From: Carpediemonas membranifera BICM
Lineage: Eukaryota; Protista; Fornicata
Assembly: GCA_019828565.1 (NCBI GenBank)
Contig: JAHDYR010000005.1
Coordinates: forward strand, 602,829-666,828
Reading direction: 5' to 3'
DNA length: 64,000 nt
The position numbers were made by a program, and so were the translations under genes. The notes beneath the pieces were generated by a model. The model did not search any database. It was given only the letters and a program-made list of their open reading frames with translations, and was not told the origin of the DNA. Shown here piece by piece: positions 2 to 53,686 of this stretch; position 1 is the stretch's first letter, and each line of letters begins with the position of its first letter.

Positions 2-328
2 AGGTTCGGCCTCGAAGATGAGGCCAGATTCGTATACAAGACCATGAATAGGATCGAGAACGGCGCAAAGATGAAGGAGATCGGGAACATTCTCTTTGCA
101 AGAATCCAGTACCTTCTAATCAAGGACGTGTACACTGACGCTACTGCAGAGCGGTTCGAGAACTATTGCAAGGCGAAGGGCGTGCCTGATCGCGACGAGG
201 TCCTGGAACTGGCGGCCCGCGCCAAGTCTAAGGGCGATAAGCGCGACGCTAATTTTCGCCGCGGTGGCCGCGCTCAGGACCGAGGTCGCACTCAGACAGG
301 ATCCTCCGGCAAGAGAGCCCACACCTAA
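2..328 (+). CDS. C-terminal part of the gag-like ORF1 of the YR retrotransposon
   Basis: Frame is open from the window start to TAA at 328, has a basic RG-rich C-terminus and lies directly upstream of the RT ORF. Confidence 0.65.
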   Translation, partial: RFGLEDEARFVYKTMNRIENGAKMKEIGNILFARIQYLLIKDVYTDATAERFENYCKAKGVPDRDEVLELAARAKSKGDKRDANFRRGGRAQDRGRTQTGSSGKRAHT

Positions 329-3014
329 CCCTCTTTCCATGCATGAACGCGGCGTGGAGGGAGTGGCAGAGGTTGGGAGCATCACAACGGGTGATCAACT
401 GGTTACGATACGGGGTCGAGATCCGTCTGAGAAGTCAACCACCAGCACCAAGGCAACAGCCGACAGTCGACCCATTCATTGTCCAGCAGATTCCTTCCTT
501 GATAGAGACAGGCGTCATAGAGCAAGTGAATCCCTCTTCCCTGCGACACACCGCCTCGCTGTTTACTGTGCCGAAGGGCGAGTCGAAGAGGATCATTCAC
601 AACCTCACGATACTGAACGACTGCTCGGCAGAGCGCTCATCCTTCCGGCTCTACGGTCTGCGCAGAGCTCTCTCCCTTCTCCAGAGGGGCGACTGGATGG
701 TCAAGTTCGACCTCAAGTCCGGGTACCATCAAGTACCAGTACGGAAGGAGGACCGCAAGCTGCTAGGAGTCTATCTTCCAGACGGACGAGCGTTTCAGTA
801 CAGAGTGCTAGGCTTCGGCTGGCGCGCATCGCCGTTCGTGTTTCAGACGATCACCAACCAACTCGCCAAGATACTAGCCCTTCGGACGGGTCTTACCATC
901 GTTGTCTACCTCGACGACTTCCTCTTATTTCACCGCGACCGAGAAATCCTGAGGAGGGCGGTGCCGCGCATCAGGCGGACTCTAGCCGACCTCTGTGTCC
1001 TCACCTCAGAGGAGAAGTCAGAATGGGCACCGACTCAGTCATTGGTCTATCTGGGGCTCGTGATAGACTCCGCGAGTTTTACAATACGCCTCCCGGCGGA
1101 CAAGGCCAAACGTTACTCCTCTCACATTCATCAGGCTCTGGCAGGCAAGACCATCGATCAGGAGACTTGGGCCAAGATCCTCGGGAGACTGACTTACTTC
1201 GCTACAACCGCCCACGGGGCTTTCCTCCGGCTGAGACACCTTCAACAGGACCCACTCTCCAAGGAGCTACTGCAAGAGTGGCTGCTACTGCTAAGAGAGC
1301 GCCCAGTCCGAGACATCAGAGAACTTCAGTCGCTTTGGGGCGCTCACCCCTCCTTAGACCTCGTCGTATCGACAGACGCATCTGGAGTCAAGTGGGGAGC
1401 AGCCGTGCACGGCGAGTATGGGACCTCAGCCTCGGGCACGTTCACTCCAGAACTAAGAGCAGAATCTATCAACGTGAAGGAGCTCGCGGGAATCCTACAG
1501 GGCATCCGTCTGATCGGCAGACAGAGTTCCCAACGCGAGCTATCGATCTTCTCAGACAACACATCAGCTCTGGCCTGGCTCAACAAGGCGGGGTCTACGA
1601 AGGCTCCACCTCAGGCCCTGCACATTCTAGCCCAGATCCAGAAGGAGGCGGAGGACCGGAACCTGACACTCCGTGGACTACACACTCCGGGCATCATCAA
1701 CCTGGCAGCAGATCGGCTGTCCAGAGGCTTCTCACGACTCCCTTCCTCTCTGGAGTCCAGCATGGAATCTGTCCTCGCGGAGTGGGGTCCAGTCCAGACA
1801 GTCTCAACGGACGTAGACGTAAGGCTTGGATGTCGCGTCCTCTGGGCCCCCAATTCGTCTATGGCAGCCATAGTCCAGAAGATAGCGACAGCGAGAGTTC
1901 AGACTCAGACTGGACACCCGAGGTCTTGGACCTCAGCAGTCTTTCTCCTCTACCCAGAGGTTCAAGCGCCGGAGATGAGACTCCTCAAGAGTTGGACGCC
2001 CTGGAAACTCCGTCTCTCCGTCCCGGCTTCGAGCTCAGATCTGGCCCACCTACTTCACCTACAGGACAGAGGACGCCTACGGTTCAATGTGATGGCGTTC
2101 AGGACGTTTTCCACAGAGTCCTCAGGTCGGACAGAGTGATTCACCTTAATCACGCGTCTGCTCGGACGGTGGCCGGCTGGGTGGCCAGGTTCGAAGGCTC
2201 TCGCGATCGCAGCCTGTCGGATCGAGACCAGCTTGTAGCCTTCCTCAAGGACGAAGGCTCCTTCTGCGGGCCATCGAACGTGGCGAGGAAGGGCTACTGG
2301 ATTGTTCAGCTACAGGAGTTCCTCAAAGACTGGCATCCGCCCGCCAACTCCAAGTACATCGTTAAGCAGGCGGCTAAGGGCGCCAGCACGGCGGGAACTA
2401 CCGGCGGCTCGCGCGCCATCACCAAGGCTGAGATGATCGAGGCACTGGGGCGCCGGAGTGACGACTTTGAGTCATATCAGGCATGTCTCTTTGGGGCAGT
2501 CGCCTATCTGACGGTGTCCAGAGGCATCGAGATACTCTCCCTATGCCCGGCCGACCTGGAGCTACTCAAGAACGGCGACATTCTCCTACACATTCAGCGG
2601 ACCAAGACCATCCTAACGGGAGTTAAGAAGCGCGTACCATACGTATGGCTATCAGCCGCCTTCAACCCGGCCTTGGCACTTAGACGCTGGGTCGAGGGCA
2701 CACACTACCTGGCTGATGACACCCCCATCTGGCGAGTCATAATCAACGGGCGCCTGAGCAGAGACAAACCGCTCACAGCCGCACACCTCCGACGAGTCGT
2801 GAAGGCGTTGTTCGGTCCACGGACGGGTCTCCACAGCTTCCGTAAGGGGGCAGCGTCGGAGATGGCTCTATCAGGAGTCCCGCTGGAGGTGATCCTCTCA
2901 ATGGGCACATGGAAGGACGTCACCTCCCTCCGCAGCTATGTCGCTGACGCCATCAGAACAAACGAGGACCTCACCAGGAGGATGAACCTCAGCCTTCTCG
3001 GGCCCCACTTTTAA
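264..3014 (+). CDS. Tyrosine recombinase ORF. The recognisable YR domain is roughly the last 220 aa; the frame is open across the whole RT ORF and the true start is uncertain.
   Basis: Catalytic set SRGIE (R), RTKT (K), HSFR (H-x-x-R), MGTW (W) and RSY (Y). Confidence 0.88.
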   Translation: MAALRTEVALRQDPPAREPTPNPLSMHERGVEGVAEVGSITTGDQLVTIRGRDPSEKSTTSTKATADSRPIHCPADSFLDRDRRHRASESLFPATHRLAVYCAEGRVEEDHSQPHDTERLLGRALILPALRSAQSSLPSPEGRLDGQVRPQVRVPSSTSTEGGPQAARSLSSRRTSVSVQSARLRLARIAVRVSDDHQPTRQDTSPSDGSYHRCLPRRLPLISPRPRNPEEGGAAHQADSSRPLCPHLRGEVRMGTDSVIGLSGARDRLREFYNTPPGGQGQTLLLSHSSGSGRQDHRSGDLGQDPRETDLLRYNRPRGFPPAETPSTGPTLQGATARVAATAKRAPSPRHQRTSVALGRSPLLRPRRIDRRIWSQVGSSRARRVWDLSLGHVHSRTKSRIYQREGARGNPTGHPSDRQTEFPTRAIDLLRQHISSGLAQQGGVYEGSTSGPAHSSPDPEGGGGPEPDTPWTTHSGHHQPGSRSAVQRLLTTPFLSGVQHGICPRGVGSSPDSLNGRRRKAWMSRPLGPQFVYGSHSPEDSDSESSDSDWTPEVLDLSSLSPLPRGSSAGDETPQELDALETPSLRPGFELRSGPPTSPTGQRTPTVQCDGVQDVFHRVLRSDRVIHLNHASARTVAGWVARFEGSRDRSLSDRDQLVAFLKDEGSFCGPSNVARKGYWIVQLQEFLKDWHPPANSKYIVKQAAKGASTAGTTGGSRAITKAEMIEALGRRSDDFESYQACLFGAVAYLTVSRGIEILSLCPADLELLKNGDILLHIQRTKTILTGVKKRVPYVWLSAAFNPALALRRWVEGTHYLADDTPIWRVIINGRLSRDKPLTAAHLRRVVKALFGPRTGLHSFRKGAASEMALSGVPLEVILSMGTWKDVTSLRSYVADAIRTNEDLTRRMNLSLLGPHF
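343..2139 (+). CDS. Reverse transcriptase-RNase H of DIRS type with a degenerate C-terminal methyltransferase-like domain
   Basis: KFDLKSGYHQ, LGFGWRASP and YLDD RT motifs. RNase H motifs TDAS, INVKEL, FSDN and ADRLSR. C-terminal WGP...QKI...LLYP remnant. Confidence 0.93.
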   Translation: MNAAWREWQRLGASQRVINWLRYGVEIRLRSQPPAPRQQPTVDPFIVQQIPSLIETGVIEQVNPSSLRHTASLFTVPKGESKRIIHNLTILNDCSAERSSFRLYGLRRALSLLQRGDWMVKFDLKSGYHQVPVRKEDRKLLGVYLPDGRAFQYRVLGFGWRASPFVFQTITNQLAKILALRTGLTIVVYLDDFLLFHRDREILRRAVPRIRRTLADLCVLTSEEKSEWAPTQSLVYLGLVIDSASFTIRLPADKAKRYSSHIHQALAGKTIDQETWAKILGRLTYFATTAHGAFLRLRHLQQDPLSKELLQEWLLLLRERPVRDIRELQSLWGAHPSLDLVVSTDASGVKWGAAVHGEYGTSASGTFTPELRAESINVKELAGILQGIRLIGRQSSQRELSIFSDNTSALAWLNKAGSTKAPPQALHILAQIQKEAEDRNLTLRGLHTPGIINLAADRLSRGFSRLPSSLESSMESVLAEWGPVQTVSTDVDVRLGCRVLWAPNSSMAAIVQKIATARVQTQTGHPRSWTSAVFLLYPEVQAPEMRLLKSWTPWKLRLSVPASSSDLAHLLHLQDRGRLRFNVMAFRTFSTESSGRTE

Positions 3015-3170
3015 CCACCCCCTCCATTAAACATCCGCGTTCGAGGGGGAACGGCCGAGGCGAGACGGACTCGCCGGCCTGGATTCATCATTAATTCTTA
3101 ACTCTGGTCGAGGCGAGATAGACTCGCCGGCCCAAAGCTTTAGTCCCACAGGGACGTCTTGCGGGATTGT

Positions 3171-3464
3171 CCCATTTTGGTTGGATTTAAGAGGAGGGCT
3201 CTCTGTTATAGAGCCACACTTTGTGGATCCTGTCACAGGACCATCACTGGCACCTGCGCGCGCCGATCAATGTGCACTTTAGGTCACACTTCGAAACGCA
3301 TCGGCAGGTGTCGGAGCCGTTTCGGACCTGACCGGATCGCGAGACGAGGATTTACCCGGGTCTGTCATAAGAGCTCGGGGAAGCCACCCGAAGTAAATAC
3401 TCGCCCCCCCATTTTGGTTGGATTTAAGAGGAGGGCTCTCTGTTATAGAGCCACACTTTGTGGA
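3171..3464 (+). repeat. Split direct repeat terminus: B1 (3171-3227), A (3228-3407), B2 (3408-3464)
   Basis: Exact 57-bp direct repeat around a 180-bp segment. A+B recurs at 11346-11585. Confidence 0.9.
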
Positions 3465-3539
3465 CCGCCATATTGGCCTGTGGACGGCGCTTGGCGCCGG
3501 GGGTAGCTTGATGAGGCAGTCAACCATGTGTGAGAAAAA

Positions 3540-3612
3540 TGGTCCACGTGGGGCTCGAACCCACGACCTTTGGCTTATCAGACCAACGATCTACCGACTG
3601 ATCTAGCAGACC
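3540..3612 (-). tRNA. tRNA-Ile, anticodon GAU
   Basis: Minus strand reads GGTCTGC TA GATC-AGTCGGTA-GATC G TTGGT-CTGATAA-GCCAA AGGTC GTGGG-TTCGAGC-CCCAC GTGGACC A. This is a full cloverleaf followed directly by TTTTT (3535-3539, Pol III terminator). Confidence 0.93.
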
Positions 3613-3985
3613 AATATGCTCACGCAGGTTGTCATGCAGCCATATGAGGTCCGGACTATGCCACGAACCCGTACGTGGCTCCAGGCGGGTCTATGACTCA
3701 TTCCAGCTCACTACAACCGTTATGTGCTGCGGTGCTCCCTGGGGCAGATCTGAGTTCATCGATACTGCTTCGGAATCCCGGAAGAATGGAACAAATAGAC
3801 ATCCGTTTGCTTAGTTCTTTCTCCGGGTGGATCAAGTTGGGGTATAGATCAGGATGAAGGTTGGCTAGAGGTGTCTTAGGACATAGAGCCCCGCGCTCGT
3901 TACCCAGCCTGATTGCACCACCGATCTCAGCCTACTTGTCTAATTCATTGCCGGCATCTGTTTGTGACATTTACATTGCTATCCA

Positions 3986-11071: not shown

Positions 11072-12403
11072 CTGATCGAGGGATGCAGATGAGACGTCCT
11101 TGCGCAGGATTGCGTCCGAGTCGCCACGAGTGAGTTGCGTGGCGGGGACAGTAACAACGCGCCCTAGACCAAGCCGATCGACGTCCCATGCCGTTTCTGA
11201 GAGGTGGAATGCTCGCGCGAGTGACAGCGACCTCGAACGCCTGCCCAGCGTGCAAAACCATGACACGCCCGCACGCCGATAAACAGCCTTACTCCCGCAC
11301 ATTCCACACGCAAACAGAATCACTCGGTGCCGACGCATGCCCAGCTCCTGTCACAGGACCATCACTGGCACCTGCGCGCGCCGATCAATGTGCACTTTAG
11401 GTCACACTTCGAAACGCATCGGCAGGTGTCGGAGCCGTTTCGGACCTGACCGGATCGCGAGACGAGGATTTACCCGGGTCTGTCATAAGAGCTCGGGGAA
11501 GCCACCCGAAGTAAATACTCGCCCCCCCCCCATTTTGGTTGGACTTAAGAGGAGGGCTCTCTGTTATAGAGCCACACTTTGTGGACCGCACGCCGCGCCA
11601 CAGGACGGCAAAAGCTCTCGTCGCCTCGCGCTCAGCACTGCCGTCCCAGTTGCCACCGCCCTCGGGGCCTGCTGGCTGCTGTGTTCCCACCCTCGCCCGA
11701 TCCAGCCCTCACCATCGACCTGGGGCCGCCGATTCCTCGCGCGGTACCATGCCGAAGGGCTGCTCAACTGGGACAGTGCCTTCCACACGCTCAACTTCGT
11801 TCGCTGCGGCCACGATTGCTCGTTGACAGCGTATAGCCGGCCAGATGCTATGCCGGCTGGCGCGGTGGGCGGAGGTGTGCGCGGCGCGGAGACACGCGGG
11901 GGCAGCATTATCGCACAGCCAGGCGTCGAAGGGTGCGGCAGGAGGCGGGCGGGGCCGGCAGACCGCCTGCTGCGCGGCTGCACCCGCCGCTGTGGCGTGG
12001 CCTTTCCTGGCAAAACGCCGATCGTGCGCATGAGAAGGCAGGACGCGGCGGAAGGCTGGCACTGCACCAATAGACGTTGACTGCTCGCGTGCAGCGGCCA
12101 TCTAACGGGGCACTCGCTGTATCCTGCTCAGCGCCTTCACGAACGCCTCTGCGAACGCGCCCTGACACGACAGAACTGCCCGCAGCCGGAATAACCGACA
12201 GAAAATGCTTTTGCTCAGACTATACACGCTCATGAGGGTTGCACGTACCGTGAACCGCGTCCACGCGCTCCCCGGCAAGCTTCGTCGCCGCCGATGAGGC
12301 TGGCACACGACCTCAACAGTAAACAGCGCTTTGCGATGGCTCATGTGTGCTCTATGCCGCTTTCTGGTGGCCACAGCAGCAGAAATGCGGCGCAAGTGGG
12401 TCG
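11072..12403 (-). repeat. 1.09-kb repeat, copy 2 (inverted), interrupted by a 240-bp insertion
   Basis: Reverse complement of 5867-6959, with the extra segment 11346-11585. Confidence 0.9.
11346..11585 (+). mobile_element. Solo A-B terminal-repeat remnant of the YR retrotransposon
   Basis: Matches 3228-3464 apart from one substitution and a longer C-run. Comparison with the empty site in repeat copy 1 shows a clean insertion at cccagc|ccgcac with no TSD. Confidence 0.9.
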
Positions 12404-39613: not shown

Positions 39614-41576
39614 GGGTGTGTCCGGTGCAGATAAACCTGTACCGAGTAAACGCGACTGAGGCTTTCATCATGTCATCGAGGCCCACGAGCGCTTCGCAGC
39701 AGCGGTGGCCTTCTGGGCAACGCAAGCTGGGCGTGGCTCCTGGCCCAGCTGGCATGGAACTGCTCGCGCATCTGGCGTGTGCATTCGTGCTTCTCGCAGC
39801 GTTTGGCTGGTGCGAGCTGGTGCGCTCATGCTCGAAGCCTGCAGTCTTCTGGGCGGTGTCAGCAATAAACCAGCCTCTTGCATGTCGATGGCGAGCATCG
39901 GTGCGATCTTGTCCCGCGCTTTGGCGAATTCTGCAAAGGTAATTAATTAACTATACAGCAAGTGAACATTTCGACTCGACCTTCATATCTCGCCGAATAT
40001 TTAGTGGATATCAGATGTAATTCCAGATTCTTCTTACTTACCCCCGACTACCCCCCGGAGTCATTTGTCAGACCTGGGCTATCTCTATTCGTCGTAAAGT
40101 TCTGAGTAGCCGTTTTGGGGGGTCTGCCCGACCTCCTTGGGCGACTCACGCGACGAGGAGAGTACGCAGAGCCACGCAAATACACCACGATATGTCCCTA
40201 TCCTTCAACATATCAATTCCGAGCTAACTTTTTATAATTCTTAAATCTCCGTTATTTATGACAGTCGGTAAGAGTCATACTCCGGGGTATACCCGACCAG
40301 ACGACACAGAGAAGACTAGCGCAAGCCGGCTCATACACGCATGCACCAACCTATGTGGGCTTGATGGCGGGGGTTGATGGCGAAAATTAATTAACGACGG
40401 GTTGGGTGTGGGTGTCGGGAAGCTCATGGTCGGCGGCGCAGAACTCGGGACTGGGCCATGCGTTCTCTTAGCAACTGGCCACGCTTCTTAGTGGCATAGG
40501 GTGCGGTCGAGGCAGCTACTAAATTTTCGCTAAATACAAGATTTTTTGACACCAAAAAAAACCCTCTCAAACGAATGATGGAAAGAATGTGTAGGTATAG
40601 AACGACGTAGTTTTAGATGTAGATGAAGGTTTGCTATTTCGTTTTTCGATCCGAGTTATGGCCATCGAGTAATCGATAGTGCAATTCTGAAAAATGACGA
40701 CTTTATCTGAAATGAACGTCATGATCACGAAATGCTACGTTATGATGCTGGAACGCGTTATGGTGTTGTACTATGCTTGGTCAGATGATGCATTGTGAGT
40801 TCTGCATGGGAAGCCATAAAGTGCGATGACGAAGTGAGACGACGGTGAGTATTTATGCTGCTTTGAAGGTGAGTGACTGGTTGTGTGTGGCTGGGAGGTC
40901 CGCGGGGGGTCGCAGGGGGGCAGAGAGAGTGACGGAGGCGTAGAGAGGTGTAGCGTAGCGGAGGGCGGGAGGAGCGTAGCGACGAGCGCCCGGAGCGAAG
41001 CGAAGCCGAACGAAGCCGGAGGAGCGACCGGAGCCCCACCGAAATGATAAGGAGGCGCGATTACGTGCGGCGATTAAGGGCGGCGATTGGCTGCGTTCTA
41101 TTGCTCGAGTTTTATGCTCAGTTCGACGGGCTCCGAGTCAGTTTCCTTGCGTGGCGTTGGTTTGGGGGGCTTCGTAGGTTTTAGAACAGTACAGTTTGTA
41201 CATGGCTGTAAGCAGCTTTAGCTTGCTTCACCTAAAAGTGCCTGCCAAATCCCGGATCCGAGCCGGCATTTGGCAATTGACAGAAATCGACGCTCGTGCT
41301 GGGAGTGGCTCCGTTGACGTTTGTGTTGCGCTGTATAGCTTCGTAGTGCGCTCGTGCGCTTGTGAGTCGAGTTCTTGGTGATGTGTCTTAAAGCGCCTGC
41401 CAAAATGATGACTCTGAGTCTGTTGTAACGATGCGCTAATTTATTTCGACACACTGGTGTCGTCTCGGACCAAGTAGGACCAAGACGACACCCATTAAAT
41501 ATATAAATATTAACACGGTATTGCGACACTACCCCTCCCCCCACCGAGAGTATTAAAGCCACTTTGCAAATTGTGT

Positions 41577-41651
41577 CAGAAACCCATCCGATGGTCGAGG
41601 ATCTTCCTTCAGGGTGGAACCGGGTTCGACCCCCGGGGTCACCATATTTTT
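41577..41651 (+). other. Degenerate tRNA-like / Pol III promoter-like sequence inside the 3' non-coding region of Gypsy 1
   Basis: D-arm-like ATCC-GATGGTCGA-GGAT, perfect T-arm CCGGG-TTCGACC-CCCGG, then GGTCACCA and TTTTT. Acceptor and anticodon stems are poor. Confidence 0.5.
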
Positions 41652-42118
41652 CATTGAATGGGTCTTAACCTGCACGACCCAGCGATGAGTCGAAAAGAAG
41701 GAGGAGGCGAAGGACGGAAAAAAAATGGAAAGGGTGTACTCGATATGCCCTTGCAGCGGCCTACCTCCACCTCCTGTCTGAGGTCTGAGTACCTCGTGTG
41801 GTGGCCGAAACACGAGTCGATGGCGAAAGAGTGAACGGGGAAGATGATCGCAACGAGAGCTGAACCCGAGGGAAATGGGGAGATATATAAAGGTGATTGT
41901 ACTGCTGTAGCACTAGGTTCTCACGGGCATTGGTTCCCCCGCAATGCGCAAAAATTTGGAATCAATCGACTATCGATTAACTGGGGAGGTTTGGACCGAA
42001 ATTCCCCGCAAAAGAGGTGTAACAAGCATGTGTAGAGCGATATTGGGCGGAAGAATTACTTCCTGGGGGTAATTGAGCATAATTGGCTGCTCGCCGATTG
42101 AGTTGCCTAATACTGCGG

Positions 42119-45100
42119 CTAGGACCGGGCCCGCCACCTGCGACGAATACGAGCCAGAGTCGGCTCTAGTGCAGGGTTCTCGCGCAAATATTGGTCTAGG
42201 GCCTCCAGCTGGTCGGTGTCTCTGGTAAAACTAATCCAAGAGTCTTCGCTCGGCTCGTAGCCCAGCCAGTGGACTTTGAATTCGACCTTGGACCCCTTGT
42301 TTGAGACCCTGTGCTTGTAGACATTGTCGACCACGTACTCACCGCACTCGGCGGCAAGTCTAGCGATCAGGGCTTGCTCGTCCTCTGGCGTCTCGACAGG
42401 AATGAGTCGCTCATCGCTGACCAGGACCTCTGCCAGCGACACTAAGTCGCGAACCACGTGCGTAGCGGGCGATTCGCCGGCTCGTACAACCTTCATCGGG
42501 CCCCGGAGGCTGGTGAGCAGCTTGGGAGCTCTGCCAACGTAGCGGAGGAGTGCGAAGGAGCCATCCGGGAAGCTCGGAGGTGTGTCGCTGTCCTCGCCGC
42601 TCTTGTTTCGTTCGCTATACCGTTGGAGATGAGCCTTGGCTTGCAGACGGCGGGTATTAAGGGCGTCGCGGAACGCCTTCAGGCAATCGGCTTGGCCCGC
42701 CGACATTTCCTTAAATAGGGCCCACGCCCGCTCGTATTGCGCGACTGAAAACTGCTCGGAGTCGGATCCCGAATTGCCTGTCACTAGGCGTAAGGGGGCT
42801 TGCCCCGTGGCCCGTGTTGGCCGTGTATTAATGATGTACTGCACTAAAGGGAGGAAAGGAACCCAGTCATAGTCCTGGCTGTCAAATAGTAAACCCCGCA
42901 ACAGACGAAGGACTTTTCCATTCGTGCGTTCAACAATTCCGTTGGAGGCTGGGTGATGTGGGGTCGAGTAACGATGCTTGAGGGAGAGGATCCGGTTGAC
43001 TTCAGCGTCCACTTGGTTCCTAAATTCCGGTCCGCCATCAGTTTGAAGTAGCGCTGGTTTCCCAAATAGGGCCCAGACTTCTAGCATTGCTTGGGCTGTC
43101 TCGGCGGCCGTGGTTGATCTCACCGGCTTCAGTACCACGTATTTCGTGAAGACATCTGTGAAGACCAAGACGCCCTTGTACTCACCGCTAGCCCCCAGGG
43201 AGAGAGTGTCGACTTGGACGCATTCAAAGGGCGTGTACCGGTGTGTGCTGTTCTTCGCCGGGGGCGATTCGCTTGTGTGCGCGCAACTTCTGGCATGTCA
43301 AGCACTGCTTGACTACCCGCTTGGCGAGTGCCGAGACGTCGGGCCAAACATGACCCGCCTCCATCGCAAGAGTCGTAAGGCGTACTGCCTTGGGGTGGCC
43401 ATTGGCGCCCTCATGCAGATCTTGAAGTATGCGCAGCTTCTCCTCCTCCGATGGTACGATCTCGGCACTGTTCACAGTCTTAGTCGACGATTCTAGCCGT
43501 GAAGAGCGTCGGCGACCACATTATGCTCGCCTGATATGTGGGCAATGTTGAAATTGAATTCTTGCAAAGCAATCCGCCAGCGCATCACCTTGGGGGATAC
43601 GAGGGAGCGGCGCATGAGGTACACAATATTCCGGTGGTCTGTGTGGATAGTGAGCGAGTTAACCATCTTGAGTAGAGGACTCAAGTCAGGCCGGGTGAGG
43701 GTATGAAGGATTGCGTACAGCTCCTTGTCGTAGGTGGCCCAGCGCCTCTGCGTCGCGTTAAATAATTTCGAAACGAAGGCGACCAGGCGGCGATTCGCGC
43801 CCTCTCCCTGGGTGATTACGGCCCCAAGCCCCCGGTCGCTTGCGTCAGTGTAAACGTCCCATGGCAGGCTGGGATCAGGCTGAGCCAGGACGGTCTCTTG
43901 GGCTACCGCCTCTCTCAGGGCCACGAGGGCTTCCTCTTGGCGTGGTCCCCATACGAATGGCTCACCGGCGTTCCTGATCAGCTCATAGAGGGGGTCCACA
44001 AGGTCCGCCGCGGCTGGGATGAAGTCGATCACGTAATTAAACATCCCTAAGAGTGTTCTGACCCCTGAAACATTGCTCGGAGCCTCTATCGACGTGAGTG
44101 CTTCAATCCGTCGCTTGTCGATGCTCTTCCCCTCGCGGGAAAGGTGGAAGCCCACGATGTCTAACTCCTCCGCGCCGATCACACATTTTGCCGGGCTAAG
44201 CCGAAGGTCATACTTTGTCAGCAACTGGAAGGTTTGCTCTAAGCGTGCTATAAGTTCCTCCTCAGATTGGGCGTAGATTAAGATGTCGTCAATATAGACC
44301 AGCACCCCCCGGTGGAGTACCGGGGCGAGGATGGATTGCATGGTACGCTGGAAATAACTCGGAGCGTTAGTCAGCCCGAATGGGACTCGGTTGAACTCCT
44401 CGTAGTCGTCAGGTGTTACAAACGCCGTCATAGCTCTGTCTTCCTCGTGGAGGGGCATCTGATGGTACCCGGACGTCAAGTCCAAGCTGGCGAAGAATTG
44501 AGCCCCCGCCGCCTCCTGCACGAAGGTTTTCAAGTCGGGAAGGGGAAAATGGTCACGAATGGTGAGAATGTTGAGCTTTGTGTAGTCCACACAGAGGCGT
44601 ATGGCGCCGTTCTTCTTATCCACTACCACGATCGGGGAGGAGAACGGTCCGACGCTGTTCCTGGTGATGCCAAGGTGGCGTAGGCGGGTTACTTCTTCCC
44701 GCACCTGAAGGCGTCGTTCCCCTGATAGTCTCCGGGCTCGTTCCTGGACCAGGGCGTCCGGGTCATTCAATCGGATCCGCATAGGTTCAACCTTGGCTCC
44801 TTGAGCCGGAATGGGGCCGAACAACGTGGAATACTCAGCAAGTAGCGCTCGTACCTCGCTTCGGAGCGTGGCGCTCGCGGATTCGGGAATTTCAACAGCA
44901 CCAACGTCCTCCGAGACGTCTAACTGGTTCAAACTCAGCGGAATGTCGTCCCCGTCCTCCTTGCTCAGATTTTCGGCTACGAGCTGGAGGAATAAGGAAT
45001 CCTTCGTAAGAAGCCCGAGTACACGAAGAATGTCGGTGCCAATAAGGATTTTCTCGCGGTCCCCACTGAGGATTGCGAACTTCGCCTTAAACCGCGTTGG

Positions 45101-46224
45101 GGCTCCCGCCAGCGTGAGGTGTAACCAAGCCTCAGTATAGTGGTTAGTTGTCGAAATGGAACCGTTCGCCATTCTGAAGCGGAGGGTCGGGCCGGTCACT
45201 GTCTGTAGGCCAAGGGCCTCTGCTGACGCAGCGGAGATGATAGATTTTGGTGCTCCAGTGTCAATAATAAAGGAATACTCTTGGTCGTTTATACGACCAG
45301 ACACTTTGAGTGGCTCATCGGGGTCCGTGTCCAGGAGATTAGCCTCGATTGGCTCCTTCTTCTTCGGGTTGGACCGGAGGCCGCCTCCTTCTTGGCGAGA
45401 GCGCATTGGGGCCCCATTGGGGCACTGATTATCCCAATGCCATCCGCCGCACTTGCCACAGGCACGATGGGGAGGCTTCAAAGCTGGGTTGACGTCGTTC
45501 GGCTTGAGAGTGGAAGACTTCTCCGGGGCCCCTGAGGCAACTGCGCCCGGGACCGGGAGGCGAGGCGGTTGGCCTCCTGCGGCCGTTCCTTTCTTTCGGG
45601 TGGAGGACTTTCCGGCCTGGTAGTGACCAAAGCGAATGGCCTTAGCCCGAGCGTCGTCATCTTCTTGAGCGAGGGCAATGCTCAGCTCGTATGCATCGGC
45701 AAGTGACTTCCTCTTAGGATGCTCCTTGAGTTCAAAGTCCAGGACCTTGCGGAAAGTGGATGGGCGGATCCCCTGAAGGAAGATCTTACGCGCGTTCTTC
45801 TCAAAGGGGGAAATGTCTTCTTCGTCCTCTTCTTGTTCCTCTTCGTCCTCGTCCGAGTCGGACTCTTCGATGTCTTCGGCCTTAGAGAAAACTGCTGAGA
45901 ACGCGCTGACGTACGCGCGAATGGAGGTGATTCTTTTTCAGATACCTGGCAGGTGACGGCCTCGAGCTCTTTGACAAGGGACAATTTGTCCACCGGAGCA
46001 AGGAACTTGCTGACGTATTCGTCAATCTTGTCGTCATTTGCCTTCGCCAGGTCTACGTTGAGAGTGTCCTCGATGATGTCCTGCAGGTCATTGGGGAGGA
46101 GGACAGCCAGCTTGGCGGCGGGATACAACGCCTTGATTCGGGCGGCATCCCTCTTAAATGAGCGCCAGGTTTCGCTAGTCAATGTCTCAACGCTCAGAGT
46201 CGGCAGAGAAATATTACCGAACAT
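42119..46224 (-). pseudogene. gag-pol of Gypsy 1, broken by three frameshifts (about 45935, 43502 and 43262)
   Basis: CCHC (CGKCGGWHWDNQC), protease IDTGA, RT YIDD, RNase H TDAS, integrase HHCC/DDE and chromodomain (EYVVDNV...FKVHWLGY...DSW). All three breaks fall in homopolymer runs. Confidence 0.88.
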
Positions 46225-47673
46225 GTAGCCACTAGTGAATTCACTGTTGTAACGATGCGCTAATTTATTTCGACACACTGGTGTCGTCTCGGACCAAGTA
46301 GGACCAAGACGACACCCATTAAATATATAAATATTAACACGGTATTGCGACAAGTCCGCATTTTTGCAACGACGAAACTCGCTGTAGTGACGCAGTTGGT
46401 GTTTATCTAGTACTTCTGAGCTTCGTAGCGCGCTCGTGCGCTTGCGAGTCGAGTTCTGGTGATGTGTCTTAAAGCGCCTGCCAAAATGATGACTCTGAGT
46501 CCGCATTTTTGCAACGACGAAACTCGCTGTAGTGACGCAGTTGGTGTTTATCTAGTACTTCTGAGCTTCGTAGCGCGCTCGTGCGCTTGCGAGTCGAGTT
46601 CTTGGTGATGTGTCTTAAAGCGCCTGCCAAGAAAGAAAGAAATTTAACGTATCCTGTACACCTGTGTAAATCAGGGAATTACCAGTTTGCACCACCCCAT
46701 GTCCCCGGGAACGCCTTAGCGTGTTGACTTCCCTTCGTGAGCGAGCCTGATACTACGTTGGGGGCGTTAGCACCATCACCGTCAGGGTCCAGCTGGTAAG
46801 GCTGGGTAGTCCCTTGCATGTTGACCTATCAACTGGCTGGCCCGATACCCCCAAAGTCGGGATAACCCAGGTCTTACTCTTGGGGGTGTGGTTTGGAAGA
46901 GAAAGAGTTTACGAGTAAAAAGAGGTTTGGACCCTCCCAGGGATATTGGTAGATATTAATACTGACTACACTTCCCCCCCATGGCCAAGCAGTCGCGCGG
47001 CCATCACCACAACCAACATCTGGTATTACGTGGGGCTAGAGCCACCAATCGAACTTGGGATTACGCTCGCTCATGCCGAACCACTATTGGAATTATCGAC
47101 GGGATAACGACAACCAACTTCTGGGATTACGTCTTATTGCAACCTCCAGGTGAGGTATTATGCGTAGTAAGGTGTGACCGAAAGATTCGAGGATGATATC
47201 AAAAAGATTCGGAAAAGATCTATGCAGCGCTGCTAATTAAGATATGGGTTCAGGAGCTCCTGTATAAGTATAAAAAGGACGTACCACAGCCCCGCCCCCT
47301 CGCGGGCACTCTGGGGCTCGCGCTCGACTCGGGAATTCTGGCCCCGAGCATTTTTAGGCATTTCGCCATCGCTCATACAGAAAGTTCTGGTACGTTGGGC
47401 TGATCCGCCCCATTCTTACACAGTGCCCGAAAAAGGGGTTTTCGAGCCCCAATTCGGCTTCGTTGGCGAGTTCTGACTCTTTTTGTTCTGCGCTGTACCG
47501 AAAGTTAACCAACATCATAAGCACTGCTCCACGGACGGTAGAAGTCTCGTGGACTGTGTTTGAGATATAAATATTGTGAATAGTCCGTCATGGGGATCAC
47601 TATGGGCACTTCCATTCGTCATTTGGGAAAAGTGCAGGATATGTCGCTTTTTCCTGAGGAAAAGCGGCCAAAC

Positions 47674-48761
47674 ATGGCGGATACGCGTGCGCTCGACCAA
47701 ATTCGTGAGCTTTCGATGGAGTTAACTGATGACGATTATCGCAAGGTGCTCGAAAATGCCCTTGCGACGATTGCTCGGACGCAACGCTATAAGGCCCGCA
47801 CGATGAGCGCCCTGCAGAAGAGGGCCATCCGCAAGAGCGGCGGGAATGCCTCCCAGATGCCCATGATGCGGTTTGTGCGCCTCTATTCTTCTTACCTAGG
47901 ATCTTCACCGTGCCGGCAACTTCCGCTCGGGAGCTCTGCCGTGTGCCGGTGGGGGGTGTGATGGAGGGGTGCTTCACGAAGCAGGCAGACCAGCTCGCCG
48001 ATGTGGTTCGACGGTGCTTGGCTGGCTACGTTAACTTCGTTGAGGTGCCCCTCGAGGGGATCTTCGATCACCTCTCCACCGGCACGCTGTGGAGCAAGGA
48101 CGCAGGCGGCTTGCTCGATCTGTCAGCCGGCCTGCTGGTCCAGCTCCAGCGAGAGCATCGTGCGCTCCGCTTCCTGCGGGAGGCGTCTCGCAGCCGTGCC
48201 GAAACCGACTCCGGCATAGTCCGCGACGCCGTTGACGCCGGCGTTTTCGATCTCAAGGGCAACGGCTCAAACAGGTACGTCACCCCGGAGACCCTGTTCT
48301 CGCTCTCCCGCGCTCTCGGCTGCGGCCAGAGCCTGGCCCGCCGCACCCTGTACCGGGTCGCCGTCTTGGCCCTCGCCCCAGACTACTACCGCTTGTTCCT
48401 CCACGGGGAGCGTAGCGAGAACGTCTCAGTCACCGCCACTCACTGGGCCGCCCTGGTCGCTAACCTCCGCGCCATGGACGAGCTTCCGTCCCTGCCGGAG
48501 CGGCTCGGTCTGGCCATGCAGGTCTCTGACCCTGAGCGCGAGTACGAGGTCCTTGACGTGCTGGGTCACGAGATCCTGACGGCTGGATCCGACCGCCGAC
48601 TCATTCTTCACGTTCAGTACGCGGGCTACACTGCCCCTACCTGCACTGGTCTGGACGAGACCCTCGCTGCCGTCAGCGTGGCTCGCGAGTATCTGATCGA
48701 CTTTGAGCTCGAGGACTGGATCAAGGGCCCTGACGACGAGTCCGATGACGACTACCAATAA
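47674..48761 (+). CDS. Antisense accessory gene inside Gypsy 2 (about 352 aa), with a 29-nt intron at 47871-47899 and a chromodomain-like C-terminus
   Basis: Removing GTTTGT...CTTACCTAG joins ...QMPMMR to IFTVPATS... in frame. C-terminus is EYEVLDVLGH...LHVQYAGY...AREYL plus an acidic tail. The start could be an upstream in-frame ATG (47590, 47602 or 47641). Confidence 0.75.
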
Positions 48762-48780
48762 ATCTTGATTGAGAATCCGT

Positions 48781-51700
48781 TTACTGCCTGGAGTGCGCAG
48801 CACGGTGTAGTTCTCTCTGCTCAAGAAAGTCCTCAAACTTGTCACAGCCATCGACATTCTCGAATGGCTCCCACGAAGCTTCGTCCGGCTCATAGCCCAG
48901 CCACTCAACCAAGTATTCGCGATTCTCGACCGGACCGGAGTCGGGCCGGGACTTCACAATCTTGCTCGGTATATACTCGGCCGCAACAGTGTTAGCCAAG
49001 CGAGTAACTTGCTCCACGGACATGTCGCCGTGATCGAACGGGAGGACCCGGGAAGCGTCGACCCTGAACTGCTTCAGAGATTCAAGGTCACGCACAGTAT
49101 AGGCAACAACCTTGTTGTACTCCTGGTGCACCGACACTAGTGCCATTGGGCCACGCAGGCCGGCGGCGAATTTGTCGGGTGGTCTGTCGGGGTAAGCCAC
49201 CAGGACGTACGGAGTCGAAACCGTGGCACGGGCGTCCGGCCTGTACTGCTGTAGGAGCCGCTTGCTCTTAATGCGCTCGGCAGCCATGAGCCGGTACGCC
49301 TTGGCCTCGGACAGCCAGTCCTCTTGCTGGTCAACGATATACGTCTCACCCGGCGCGATAACGGTAATGTCCTTTGGCACTCGCATCTCGGTGCCATACA
49401 GGATCTCGGCTGGGGAGAGTCGAGTAGGGACTCGAGGGGTCGAGTTAACAAGGTATTGGGCAATCGGTAAGCTGTGGACCCAATCATTGGATCTAAACTG
49501 GTAACGACGTGCTGTCAGGATGGACTTAACCGACACATTCGCTCGCTCTACTAACCCATTCGACTGGGGATGATGAGCCGTCGTCTTTCTCGTTGTAAAC
49601 CCGAGTCGGGCACTCAGGTCGTTAAAGACTGCGTTGACGAACTGGGATCCTCCATCCGTCTGCAGTACCTTCGGTACGCCGTATCGGAGGACCCAGTTAT
49701 TGACAAACGCCCTGGACGTCTCGACCGCTCGGGTAGTCTGGAGCGGGACAAGCTCAGTCCAACGTGAGCACATGTCTATTACAACGAGGATATACTTATA
49801 GGTCGTGCCGTCGACCGTGCACGAGGTAGCGGACATAGTGTCCATGGCCACTCGGTCGAAGGGGTGCTCGACCGCGGTGTGCAAACCCGCATCGGAAGAG
49901 GCCGGGGGCTTACGCCTTAACTGGCATATTGGGCACTTGGCGATATAGTCGTCCACGTCCTTCTGGCGGACACGTACGCCCCAGTCTCGAAGAAGGTTCT
50001 TGGTCGCCCAGGCGGACAAGTGAGCCCCGGCGAAGTGATGCGCCTTCTGCAGCCTGTCCGCGACTTGGGTATCGAGGGTGTTAGCGAACACGCGAGAAAG
50101 GCCATCTGCTGCCCCGTTGTCAACACCCGGAACGTGACGTATGGTGAAATCGAGGTCAGCTAGTTGGTCGTACCATCTACGGACCTTGGGGTTGATGGAC
50201 TTGGCCATGAACAGCAGGTTGCGGTGATCAGTACGGATGGTAAAGTGCGTCCACGAGAGGAATTTCCGCCAACGCTGGACGGCCAGGATGATTGCGTAGG
50301 CTTCCTGCTCTGTGGTACTCCACCTAGTCTGGACCGCGGAGAATGCGTGGGACATGAAAGCGATCGGCTGCCCGTCCTGTAGTAATACGGCGCCGCATCC
50401 CACGTCTGAGGCATCGGTCATGAGGACATGTGTCGCGTCCGTCTTGAAGTGAACGAGGGAGACCCGCTTAAGGAGCTCGGCGATAACGTCGCCCAGGGCC
50501 GCTTGCTGACCCGGCCCACCGGGTTCGGCCTTGCCAGCCGACACCTGCAACAGAGGATGAGCTCGGGACGCGAAGTTGGGCACGAAGTCACGGAAATAAT
50601 TGAGGAAACCGACGAGTGCCTGTGCGGACCGCTTGCTGGTCGGTAGTTTCAGCTTCTTAATGTCGTCGATGCGGTCTTCGGCAATCCTCACGGTGTCTCC
50701 GGACACGAGTCGACCCAGGAACTCGACCTCAGCCGCGGCGAAGACGCACTTATCGCGACCTAGGTGTAGGTCATACTCTTGGCAACGTTTCAGGACGTCC
50801 CATAGGTTCCTTATGTAGGAAGGCTCGTCCCGACCCATGACAATAATGTCATCGATGTAAATAAGGCACTTCCCTGCCGAGATCAGGTCGGAGAAAGCCT
50901 GCTCCATGGCCCACTGGAAATGAGAACCAGCGTTACGCAGACCAAAGGGCATAGTCGTGTACTCAAACCGTCCAAGGGGAGTCCCGAAGGCGGTCAGAGG
51001 ACGAGAACGGTCCGTCAGTGCCACCTGATGGTAGCCGGCCTTGCAGTCGAGCGTAGCAAAGATGGTATTACCCCTGAGCTTAGCTAGACAATCCTCTATG
51101 ATCGGGATAGGGTAGTTGAACGGGGGAGTCTTCGCGTTGACCAAACGGAAGTCGATAACGAACCGGGTACGGTCCTTCCCCTTTGGGACCAAGAATGCCG
51201 GTGAGGAGTAAGCCGATGCTGATGGCTGGATGAAGCCATGTCGGGACAGGTCGTCAAGGTGTTCCTGGAGAAGTGTCTTCTTCTCCGGCGGCATGAAGAA
51301 CTCGCGGCTAAAGACGGGTTCATCATCAGACAAGACTAGATCGTAAGGGATGAGCTTACTCGGACGCCCTACTCTGTCCTCGAACAGGCCGACAAACCGC
51401 GCGAGCAGTCTGTCCTGAAGGGAAGACGACTTGTCAGACAAGGTGAATAGGCTCAACTTCTGGGGAGTAATGACCGTTGAGACGTCTTCAGCCTGCTCGG
51501 CGTCATTGGCGTCAGACTCCTCGCAGTCGTCAATCTGAGGAAGGATCCCCAGGGTGACCATATCAGGGTACCCAATGATTAGATCGTACTCTGAGGGTAG
51601 GAGGTACGCACGAGTAGTAAAGGTGCACCCACGGGGGACCAGAGCTGATTTGGCAAAGGTTACTTCGGTGGAAATAGTCTGGTCGACTGTGATGACTCCA

Positions 51701-52821
51701 GCCGGTGTCGTCACCTCGACCGGGTCACAATGCAGGATCTTTTCGCCGGACCTCTCGGCCACTTGCGGCGATATGAAGGTTGCTGACGCGCCACAGTCGA
51801 ACAACATCGACTCTGCGCTGGTCCTGTATATGGATCCTGACACAATCGGAAGAGCCTGCGCTCTGCGTTTGCTAGACGCCGCGAAACAAGACAAATAAGA
51901 ATAGTTCTGGACCTTTATACGGTCACAGAACTCTCTCTTGTGGCCCTCGCGCCCGCACTTCTCACACTTGGACTTGGGCTTCCGGCACTCGGGGCTGAAA
52001 TGGCCCTTGCCCCCGCAGTTGTAACAGGTTGGGGTCGTGCTGGTAGGGCGAGCCCGATCGCGGGACCGCTTGTCCGGGCGGTGATGGTCATGCGGGCGGT
52101 CACGACGGTCGTAGGGGCGGTCTCGGCGGTCATCTCGGCGGTCACGACGGTCGCGCTGGTTACGGCTCTGGCCGCGTTGCGGATGGGCGCCTGGCACGGG
52201 CGCTGTCGGACGGCGCGACTGATCGGAGCGGATCGCCTCGGTGAACGGAGCAAGGTACTCAGCCGACTCGGCTACGTCGCGTGCCGTCTTCATGGTGTAT
52301 TGCTGGGTCTCCGCCAGTGAGCAACCCTCAGTCTGCTCCTTCAGTCTGTAGTAGAGGGATTGGCCCTTCACAGCAAAGGCCCGCAAGTAGGCTTCACGAA
52401 TGGTGTCATCCTCGTCCATGTTAAGGCACTCCAACAAGATGTTGAACTGCGAGTTGAGCTTCGACACCTCGAGCGGCGTGAACGCCGCGATGCGCAGCCT
52501 GATAAGGTTCAGGCATTGTTCCTTTCTGGTGGGGCGCAAGGCAGCGGCGAGTCGCTGCATGATGATCTTCTCTCTGAGCTTGCGTGATGAAGTGGAAGGT
52601 TCGTCGTCATGTTGGTCACCCTGAGGAAGCGGAACCTCCTCTAGGGTCTCTAAGCCTAGCACTTGTGATGCATAGGACTGGATCTCCGGGCTTATAAGCT
52701 TGCGGAGCTTCGCCTTACCTCCTCTAGCCTTAAAGTCACGCAGTGACGTCGTAAAAGCTACGAAAGCGCTGAATGTTGCCTCTTTCAGGAGCGGCGCTTG
52801 TTTTTTCTGTTCTCTACCCAT
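48781..52821 (-). CDS. Single gag-pol polyprotein of Gypsy 2
   Basis: Two CCHC knuckles, protease FDCGA, RT LDCKAGYHQ/MPFGL/YIDD, RNase H TDAS, integrase HHCC and DDE, C-terminal chromodomain (EYLVEWLGY...SWEP). Confidence 0.96.
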   Translation of the reverse strand: MGREQKKQAPLLKEATFSAFVAFTTSLRDFKARGGKAKLRKLISPEIQSYASQVLGLETLEEVPLPQGDQHDDEPSTSSRKLREKIIMQRLAAALRPTRKEQCLNLIRLRIAAFTPLEVSKLNSQFNILLECLNMDEDDTIREAYLRAFAVKGQSLYYRLKEQTEGCSLAETQQYTMKTARDVAESAEYLAPFTEAIRSDQSRRPTAPVPGAHPQRGQSRNQRDRRDRRDDRRDRPYDRRDRPHDHHRPDKRSRDRARPTSTTPTCYNCGGKGHFSPECRKPKSKCEKCGREGHKREFCDRIKVQNYSYLSCFAASSKRRAQALPIVSGSIYRTSAESMLFDCGASATFISPQVAERSGEKILHCDPVEVTTPAGVITVDQTISTEVTFAKSALVPRGCTFTTRAYLLPSEYDLIIGYPDMVTLGILPQIDDCEESDANDAEQAEDVSTVITPQKLSLFTLSDKSSSLQDRLLARFVGLFEDRVGRPSKLIPYDLVLSDDEPVFSREFFMPPEKKTLLQEHLDDLSRHGFIQPSASAYSSPAFLVPKGKDRTRFVIDFRLVNAKTPPFNYPIPIIEDCLAKLRGNTIFATLDCKAGYHQVALTDRSRPLTAFGTPLGRFEYTTMPFGLRNAGSHFQWAMEQAFSDLISAGKCLIYIDDIIVMGRDEPSYIRNLWDVLKRCQEYDLHLGRDKCVFAAAEVEFLGRLVSGDTVRIAEDRIDDIKKLKLPTSKRSAQALVGFLNYFRDFVPNFASRAHPLLQVSAGKAEPGGPGQQAALGDVIAELLKRVSLVHFKTDATHVLMTDASDVGCGAVLLQDGQPIAFMSHAFSAVQTRWSTTEQEAYAIILAVQRWRKFLSWTHFTIRTDHRNLLFMAKSINPKVRRWYDQLADLDFTIRHVPGVDNGAADGLSRVFANTLDTQVADRLQKAHHFAGAHLSAWATKNLLRDWGVRVRQKDVDDYIAKCPICQLRRKPPASSDAGLHTAVEHPFDRVAMDTMSATSCTVDGTTYKYILVVIDMCSRWTELVPLQTTRAVETSRAFVNNWVLRYGVPKVLQTDGGSQFVNAVFNDLSARLGFTTRKTTAHHPQSNGLVERANVSVKSILTARRYQFRSNDWVHSLPIAQYLVNSTPRVPTRLSPAEILYGTEMRVPKDITVIAPGETYIVDQQEDWLSEAKAYRLMAAERIKSKRLLQQYRPDARATVSTPYVLVAYPDRPPDKFAAGLRGPMALVSVHQEYNKVVAYTVRDLESLKQFRVDASRVLPFDHGDMSVEQVTRLANTVAAEYIPSKIVKSRPDSGPVENREYLVEWLGYEPDEASWEPFENVDGCDKFEDFLEQRELHRAAHSRQ

Positions 52822-53686
52822 AGGTAAGTACTAGTACTGTGGTTTGGAAGAGAAAGAGTTTACGAGTAAAAAGAGGTTTGGACCCTCCCAGGGATATTGG
52901 TAGATATTAATACTGACTACAGGGGTCCTTCGGGCCCCCGTTCTGCCTGGCACCCGCAAGGCCTTGCCCTGCACACCCGCCACCGGGGCCTTCTGCTCGG
53001 TTTCCCCCTACAGGGCTCCTCTCAGGGATATGTTCTCCATACCATTCGACCCAGTTTGCAATTTTTCAGGCACCCGCCGAAGCGGTTTCGGGCTTGGCGT
53101 TTGCCGTACCACGCAATTGGGCCAGTTATGAAACCCACCGATCATCGCTGGGTAGCTATATGATTCACGGCTGCGTTCGGGCTCTTCCACACTTTCCGTT
53201 CCGGCATGGATCCCCTCCTCAAGGATTTGTTCCCTATAGGGCTTCTTCCTAGCTTCCGGCTGGTTCCAAGTTTTTGGGTGCCGGGCCGTTCGGCGCAGCT
53301 CTGATTTGGTCCAGGTGCCGCCCAGGTGGTATTGTTGCCTTATGGTTACCCTCCTGTTTGGCTGCTGCGCCCCGATACCTCGCACGTACGTGTATACATG
53401 TGCATACGTGCCCCGCCCTATGGCTCTGGGCTATTTCTTATACGTGTGAAGAGTGTGCCGGTTCTGCCGGCTGAATGTTGTCTACGTTCCCAGTATGGGT
53501 GAGCGTTTGTGTGTTAGCGAGATTAGTGTTCGGGGTTGAGTCCCCCTTCCGCGGCTGGGTGCTACCGGGATACGTGGGGCTTGCGTCCCCCGCTGATCCC
53601 AGGAGCGCTCCGCTTCGGTTGAGGCGGGGGGTTGGATCCCAGTTTGACCCTGGTCCCAGAGGTCATAGGATTCTGGGATGGTGTAC

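Follow-up and report, generated by a model that had tools for sequence, protein, structure and literature searches.

An intron-bearing antisense gene with a predicted chromodomain between pol and the 3' LTR of a Ty3/gypsy element in Carpediemonas membranifera

Antisense open reading frames between pol and the 3' LTR are known from the plant retrotransposons Grande, RIRE2, Retand and PvRetro13 and from the fungal element Boty; their function is unknown (PMC7264820, PMC11963269, PMC8365987). Grande gene23 of maize has its own promoter and a nuclear product (PMC7264820). In plants these frames, the aORF-3R class (Grande gene23, rice RIRE2, TRP28 of Silene Retand and bean PvRetro13), occur in most copies of a family and are conserved like the core proteins. 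Retrotransposons are also known to encode a chromatin reader fold: the chromodomains of chromovirus integrases and the readers of EpiLTRs are described as parts of the polyprotein (10.64898/2026.05.21.726589, PMC12477816). Extra ORFs are carried by rotifer elements as well (PMC5408684).

We analysed 64,000 nucleotides from the genome of C. membranifera, an anaerobic, free-living metamonad protist (contig JAHDYR010000005.1; the window), which hold a Ty3/gypsy element, Gypsy 2.

46887-52921, minus strand: Gypsy 2, intact Ty3/gypsy element of 6 kb with an LTR pair
46883-46886 (left) and 52922-52925 (right): 4-bp target duplication GGGG
46887-46970, minus strand: 3' LTR, 84 nt, TG...CA, 100% identical to the 5' LTR
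46971-46980, minus strand: polypurine tract, GGGGGGGAAG, abutting the 3' LTR
48781-52821, minus strand: gag-pol, 1346 aa in a single frame
about 48820-48975, minus strand: integrase chromodomain (Pfam Chromo 38.4 bits, cut-off 25.1)
52838-52921, minus strand: 5' LTR, 84 nt

Gypsy 2 has the two LTRs, target duplication, polypurine tract and domain order PR-RT-RH-INT of Ty3/gypsy elements. As in chromoviruses, a chromodomain lies at the C-terminus of the integrase; gypsy lineages with a chromodomain also exist outside the chromoviruses (PMC12477816). The gag-pol frame contains zinc knuckle, protease, RT, RNase H, integrase and Chromo domains, of which RVT_1, RT_RNaseH, rve, zf-CCHC and Chromo exceed their own Pfam cut-offs, and its stop is at 48781-48783 on the minus strand. 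Because the LTRs are identical, the insertion is recent. Further mobile elements cluster around it.

Between pol and the 3' LTR, Gypsy 2 carries a gene in the slot and orientation of plant aORF-3R, and likewise conserved across its group. A preliminary description of this DNA had pointed to antisense extra ORFs in some plant elements, which the published cases bear out (Grande gene23, RIRE2, Retand, PvRetro13; PMC7264820, PMC11963269) and Boty brtn extends to fungi. That gene, reported in 2011 from a fungal gypsy element, is also antisense between pol and the 3' LTR (via PMC7264820, PMC8365987); the comparison here is by description. Spacers of Retand often hold tandem repeats, as does that of Gypsy 2. 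Other features set it apart from the plant class: the Gypsy 2 antisense family has no TRP28 (PF04195) or SMC match, its protein being unrelated to plant aORF-3R, and its product has a recognisable predicted chromo fold. Retand, furthermore, is not a chromovirus, whereas Gypsy 2 has an integrase chromodomain, a metamonad host, a length of 6 kb and 84-nt LTRs. Compared with chromoviruses and EpiLTRs, Gypsy 2 has the integrase-fused reader too, but adds a highly diverged one on a separate, antisense, intron-bearing gene. Unlike methyltransferase-bearing EpiLTRs it has no detected methyltransferase domain, nor was a DNA methyltransferase cargo as in DAM-LTRs detected.

The layout is already known, and a chromodomain protein in the antisense slot is apparently new within the literature searched. 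Among papers readable without subscription we found no description of this gene or of any chromodomain-coding antisense ORF, and the supplements of PMC8516963 that were searched contain no transposon terms. The locus extends the pol/3' LTR antisense layout from plants and fungi to Metamonada, a spread that points to repeated independent invention.

47674-48761, plus strand: antisense gene, convergent to pol, between pol and the 3' LTR
47674-47870, plus strand: exon 1, encoding a long basic helix; alternative starts at 47641 and 47716
47871-47899, plus strand: predicted 29-nt spliceosomal-type intron, phase 2, GT-AG, GTTTGT...CTTACCTAG
47900-48761, plus strand: exon 2, ending at the TAA 48759-48761
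26920-26892, minus strand: intron of a host kinase gene, 29 nt, GTAAGT...CAG

Removal of the 29-nt intron leaves one open frame of 352 aa, whose stop is separated from the gag-pol stop by 19 nt. Since 38 GT-AG pairs would open the frame, openness alone is insufficient to fix the intron. Support for the junction comes from other copies and from the host: (i) P0005, a 78% identical paralogue, aligns gap-free across it; (ii) the public models P0003 (on 2 contigs) and P0004 use the identical junction; (iii) the intron has the length and the GTnnGT...YAG form of the host kinase intron, whose removal restores GEGTYGVV, which we take to be the kinase glycine loop. Within the window there are 186 GTnnGT...YAG pairs of 24-40 nt, 11 of which joined open frames; among these 11 the antisense intron had the best upstream coding score, in a type of scan that is weak and insensitive, the host kinase intron (found by eye) having been missed. 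Under a host codon model the proposed frame scores best for both exons, and exon 2 has a host-like GC3 of 0.80. Public C. membranifera models come from a pipeline trained with RNA-seq hints, which does not imply reads at this junction (PMC8516963). Published descriptions have the introns of this organism as short and rich in pyrimidines, their branch point lying at the 3' end (PMC1201135). We rejected an assembly frameshift in place of the intron, given the same junction in other copies and independent intron-shaped gaps in two related elements, L001 and L002. In-frame ATG codons occur at 47590, 47602, 47641, 47674 and 47716, and the choice of start is uncertain: P0005 favours 47641, distant homologues align with 47674.

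We regard the existence of a protein-coding accessory gene as close to certain, and very probably it is spliced as drawn. What the preliminary description had stated of the layout holds throughout, namely an intact LTR retrotransposon (here seen to have identical LTRs, a GGGG duplication and a single gag-pol frame), a convergent gene with its stop 19 bp from that of pol, and a frame that needs a host-type 29-nt intron to be open. A candidate 28-nt host intron was also seen at 25053-25026 on the minus strand, upstream of a DOCK gene.

Protein searches of 5.8 billion and 1.84 billion sequences returned only C. membranifera proteins, bar one repetitive false match (P0010), which was discarded as a homologue. 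The matches from this organism are 12 distinct sequences, covered here at the protein level; they fall into at least four subfamilies, with 30-78% identity from one subfamily to another. Cluster-mates of the window protein are 97-100% identical to it, and identical proteins occur on several contigs. One public model, P0008, named 'Aspartyl protease', joins the N-terminal part of the antisense family to 390 unrelated residues with no Pfam match, and is probably a fused gene model.

Genomic context came from a gag-pol search of metagenome contigs, which located 22 loci independently of the antisense gene itself. Two of the 22 carry a homologous antisense gene, and these are the two closest relatives, L001 and L002: their gag-pol is 43-45% identical to that of the window, and their antisense proteins, encoded in the same slot and orientation, are 23-28% identical to the window's. 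L002 is complete: its LTRs measure 75 nt, and its antisense gene is intact and encodes 391 aa. The gene has introns of 29 and 28 nt, which follow from the only one of five splice solutions to place GTnnGT at each donor. In L001, a circularly permuted contig on which one LTR is present, the introns measure 30 and 29 nt; they share positions and phases with those of L002, and one contains an in-frame stop. The L001 gene is broken in the chromodomain by a 129-nt TG...CA insertion (L001 1-129) with a 4-bp duplication, related to the LTRs of two further elements, L003 and L004. The window intron lies at alignment column 78 in phase 2 and intron 1 of L001 and L002 at column 70 in phase 0, a difference that intron turnover, or misalignment of the linker, may explain.

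Residues 277-300 of P0007, at the protein end, are the Gypsy 2 LTR read backwards. In both the P0007 and the L001 gene an LTR, oriented opposite to the gene, breaks the sequence at almost one and the same point, the first chromodomain strand; from these two cases only, an insertion hot spot is possible. An alignment scan of metagenome and viral contigs with the antisense protein, of low sensitivity, gave no match although homologues are present there. Searches for gag-pol in viral contigs and for the LTR pattern among prokaryote genomes were both empty. For neither exon 2 nor P0014 did the ESM Atlas return a usable match, which points neither to absence nor to novelty.

A second element of the window enters the comparison:

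41421-46352: Gypsy 1, distant chromodomain-bearing element with identical 108-nt LTRs and an AGTC duplication

The RT-RNase H tree has 17 rows (12 of 23 matches plus 5 proteins, 11 with fewer than 300 aligned columns having been dropped), and is a midpoint drawing without reference elements. In it the window element, L001 and L002 form one branch (100/100), which L003 and L004 adjoin. All three elements of this RT group carry the antisense gene. Outside it, the complete elements L003, L004 and Gypsy 1 have no profile match to the gene in their spacers, which measure 506-590 nt against about 1,800 nt in carriers. As sister elements with near-identical LTR pairs lack it, the gene is not needed for transposition in general. 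A single gain in the ancestor of the carrier group is the simplest reading of this distribution.

Between L001 and L002, where synonymous sites are almost saturated (pS 0.65-0.69), rough NG86 dN/dS is 0.33 and 0.22 for the two parts of the antisense gene and 0.32 for gag-pol. Judged by these rough ratios of 0.2-0.3, the antisense gene is under purifying selection. Between the window and L002 the ratios are 0.64 for the antisense gene and 0.21 for gag-pol, which shows a faster divergence of the antisense gene than of gag-pol, though the alignment, at 29% identity, is unreliable. Conservation of the frame among element copies, which the preliminary description had made a test, is borne out by L001 and L002, which keep it with introns and at the ratios just given.

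48117-48386, plus strand: central helical domain, three-helix, HTH/homeodomain-like, weakly supported (residues 125-214, pLDDT mostly 50-81)
48534-48707, plus strand: predicted chromodomain, with cage-position tyrosines at 48543, 48618 and 48627, then an acidic tail to 48758

An AF2 model of the C-terminal 78 residues, from a four-sequence alignment, has pLDDT 78 and shows three strands followed by helices. The top Foldseek match is the chromodomain of Oxpecker (probability 0.99, E 0.17), and 33 of the 40 matches listed are chromo-bearing proteins as counted from titles, with E-values above 0.1. VIA-align against 48,161 chains gave 21 at Z >= 5, and its first 24 rows are all chromo- or chromoshadow-bearing; the best is Chp1 (Z 6.1, rmsd 1.9, 52 of 55 residues), on a level with Oxpecker, with Chd1 and with the shadow domain of HP1. 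By the guidance of that tool a Z below 8 can mean a common arrangement, and the weight rests on the agreement of the lists and on full coverage. Members of the HP1 family (Chp1, Oxpecker, Rhino, HP1) superpose at about 2 A over 51-53 residues and share the aromatic cage positions. They differ from the antisense domain in sequence (14-24% identity) and in the second cage residue, which is Trp in the HP1 family and Tyr or Phe in antisense domains; the antisense domain is C-terminal, with no second chromo-type domain detected.

Profile-profile comparison with integrase chromodomains aligned 55-56 columns end to end (probability 47, score reached by 0 of 197 shuffles), and deeper profiles raised the probability to 68 (0 of 500 column shuffles). 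Identity to those domains is only 14-17%. An HMM built from five integrase chromodomains scores the antisense family at no more than 1.2 bits, below shuffled sequences, and Pfam PF00385 has no match up to E 10. The PDB sequence search of the family returned no chromodomain; its matches to IF-2, a methyltransferase, UBLCP1, XopD and an epimerase (E 0.04-1.5) were rejected as chance. No member scanned received a Pfam, PHROGs or NCBIfam assignment. No family library searched recognises the protein, which the preliminary description had not recognised either. The likeness to the integrase chromodomain noted there from the letters holds by profile and by fold but is remote and invisible to single-sequence search, and the chromo fold it pointed to is what structure prediction returned. 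We consider it very likely, on the strength of the models, that the C-terminal domain has this fold.

All six aligned domains have Y at the first and third cage positions and Y or F at the second, and L001, though split by its insertion, shows these residues too; the columns were assigned by profile alignment, anchored via the integrase domain to HP1-family chains. For SUV39H1, methyl-lysine binding is reported to require the complete three-residue cage (PMC3532415). We lean slightly towards the view that the predicted chromodomain binds methyl-lysine. With three named cage residues and a reader fold, a role of antisense ORFs as chromatin regulators becomes directly testable, and the domain can serve to probe the histone marks of a lineage from which E(z) and several core DNA-processing complexes are reported missing.

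The rest of the protein is modelled poorly (full-length pLDDT 42, except residues about 120-210), and a Foldseek search of PDB and BFVD with the full-length model was empty at E up to 0.001. Homology links exon 1 to the N-terminal ends of P0005, P0007 and P0014 (score reached by 0, 0 and 2 of 1000 shuffles, respectively), and the low-confidence model has an N-terminal helix at residues 5-40. The central domain's best matches are mostly HTH/homeodomain proteins at Z <= 5.7, within the tool's common range and from a low-confidence model; an HTH-like bundle in the centre is suggestive only.

47566-47571, plus strand: TATAAA box, candidate promoter of the antisense gene
47269-47274, plus strand: second TATAAA
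47000-47170, plus strand: five imperfect repeats of about 34 nt with a GGnATTA core (at 47022, 47057, 47089, 47123 and 47154), possible cis sites
48757-48762, plus strand: AATAAA, overlapping the antisense gene stop

The window contains 30 occurrences of TATAWA where 6.35 are expected, a count reached by 0 of 100 shuffles; the motif is also found upstream of host genes. A near-identical GAGATATAAA motif precedes the antisense gene in both the window and L002. The preliminary description had placed a promoter of the gene's own within 46981-47670; the box at 47566-47571 and the motif common to L002 fall in with this, and the promoter keeps the status of a candidate. At the other end, AATAAA overlaps the stop in all three antisense genes for which DNA is at hand (window, L001, L002), and a TAAA overlaps the stops of both the antisense gene and pol in the window and in L002. 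TAAA may be the host polyadenylation signal; if so, full-length RNA of the element has to pass such a signal at the stop of pol. The same tetranucleotide often overlaps or closely trails host and element stops (window 8554, 13492, 48761 and 48781; L002 4081). As for the spacer repeats, five copies of any such motif were reached in 3 of 200 Markov resamples, the GGnATTA motif having been picked after looking, and Tandem Repeats Finder reports no array in the Gypsy 2 spacer.

52827-52838, minus strand: perfect 12-bp palindrome that takes in the last A of the 5' LTR and occupies the primer-binding position

A 12-bp palindrome stands at the 5' LTR's end in six of six elements (Gypsy 2, Gypsy 1 at 46234-46245, and L001-L004). 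The six sequences all differ, each still perfectly palindromic, and no TGG start was seen at the primer-binding position of the elements examined. A similar palindrome is described for the fungal GalEa copia elements (PMC5445492). These palindromes suggest tRNA-independent priming or dimer initiation.

We propose that the antisense gene most likely encodes a separately transcribed, chromatin-binding regulator of the element. Its basic helix, helical bundle, reader fold and acidic tail together give it the make-up of a nuclear chromatin factor. A TATA-driven plus-strand mRNA would be spliced and would end at the AATAAA on its own stop, tail to tail with pol. In the genomic RNA the gene runs backwards; by an established principle each round then copies introns and promoter unchanged, and the introns would survive. 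The basic N-terminal helix would direct the protein to the nucleus. The central bundle might contact DNA, possibly at the GGnATTA repeats beside the 3' LTR, which is the weak step. The chromodomain would bind methyl-lysine-marked chromatin on or near the element, and expression would be regulated, most likely sustained, through competition with or recruitment of host chromatin readers, compensating for the scant regulatory room of an 84-nt LTR. Taken whole, the proposal of a conserved, spliced antisense accessory gene whose chromodomain product binds methyl-lysine chromatin and regulates element expression stands, in our judgement, evenly balanced. That regulation of the element's own expression is the main job is a shade less probable; we favour it since a canonical chromodomain is already present in the integrase and the LTR measures only 84 nt. 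We know of no genetics for C. membranifera. E(z) is reported absent from metamonads (10.1101/2021.07.16.452543), and the literature searched yielded nothing on H3K9 methylation in C. membranifera.

The preliminary description had suggested an accessory factor acting as chromatin reader, targeting helper or anti-silencing decoy. The accessory factor stands, as a conserved element-borne gene with a chromo fold; the choice among the three is one we infer. A bolder version of our proposal, which we hold to be doubtful, has the DNA-binding bundle and the methyl-lysine reader together recognise the element's repeats and displace host heterochromatin readers, with reverse transcription primed by the palindrome instead of a tRNA. 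If true, it would amount to a sequence-specific anti-silencing protein in an LTR retrotransposon, and to the first case of a defined biochemical activity for an antisense accessory ORF.

Alternatively, the protein could act in the pre-integration complex, its chromodomain steering insertion to marked, repeat-rich chromatin and supplementing or altering the specificity that the integrase's own chromodomain provides. Such domains in integrases direct insertion to heterochromatin (10.64898/2026.05.21.726589), Gypsy 2 lies within a mobile-element cluster, and a copy of its LTR interrupts P0007. Yet the integrase already carries a canonical, full-cage chromodomain, and elements lacking the gene nest too (Gypsy 1 in a repeat, an L003-like LTR in the L001 gene), which leaves a targeting role unlikely.

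Somewhat less likely still is that the chromo fold serves dimerisation or a non-histone partner, as in chromoshadow domains, making the protein an adaptor or decoy and not a histone reader. High among the structural matches stand chromoshadow domains (3p7j at Foldseek ranks 2-3; 9cea at Z 6.0, level with the best), and the post-cage tryptophan, present in 8 of 8 integrase domains, is absent from four of the six antisense domains and shifted in the other two. Three cage positions that stay aromatic across 23-33% identity would, however, be needless in a pure dimer module.

Self-limitation, a further step down in probability, would have the protein or a convergent antisense RNA hold down the transcription of the element or its copy number, for instance through a block to read-through from the pol stop as far as the 3' LTR. 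The abutting 3' ends (gaps of 19 nt in the window and 34 nt in L002) and the TAAA shared by both stops would suit it, and antisense RNA regulation has been discussed for such genes (PMC7264820). But a role of the RNA alone leaves purifying selection on the protein and the conserved cage unexplained, and the family is young and multi-copy, with identical LTRs and identical proteins on several contigs. A captured host gene or chance frame without function for the element is highly improbable: GC3, TATA box and intron form are host-like, but no homologue was found beyond these elements and the C. membranifera paralogues, and one slot is kept across the RT group with dN/dS like that of gag-pol.

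Elsewhere in the window, Gypsy 1 has an RT 32% identical to that of Gypsy 2 and a coding region in three frames; its 590-nt spacer is without the antisense gene but has TATATAAA on the plus strand at 41884. Between the two elements lies a 145-nt tandem duplication (46353-46630) related to 41271-41420 on the far side of Gypsy 1, and Gypsy 1 appears to have inserted in another repeat. A long ORF at 120-3014 with a tyrosine recombinase domain, overlapped by a second long ORF at 253-2139, is likely a DIRS-type retroelement. Inverted repeats of about 99% identity (54216-55994/61394-63180 and 5859-6962/11069-12411) flank 4-5 kb each; the first pair is strongly AT-skewed, with no Pfam match in the one ORF scanned. 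A 240-nt direct repeat, with copies 8.1 kb apart (3167-3468 and 11346-11589), adjoins a tRNA-Ile gene at 3539-3613.
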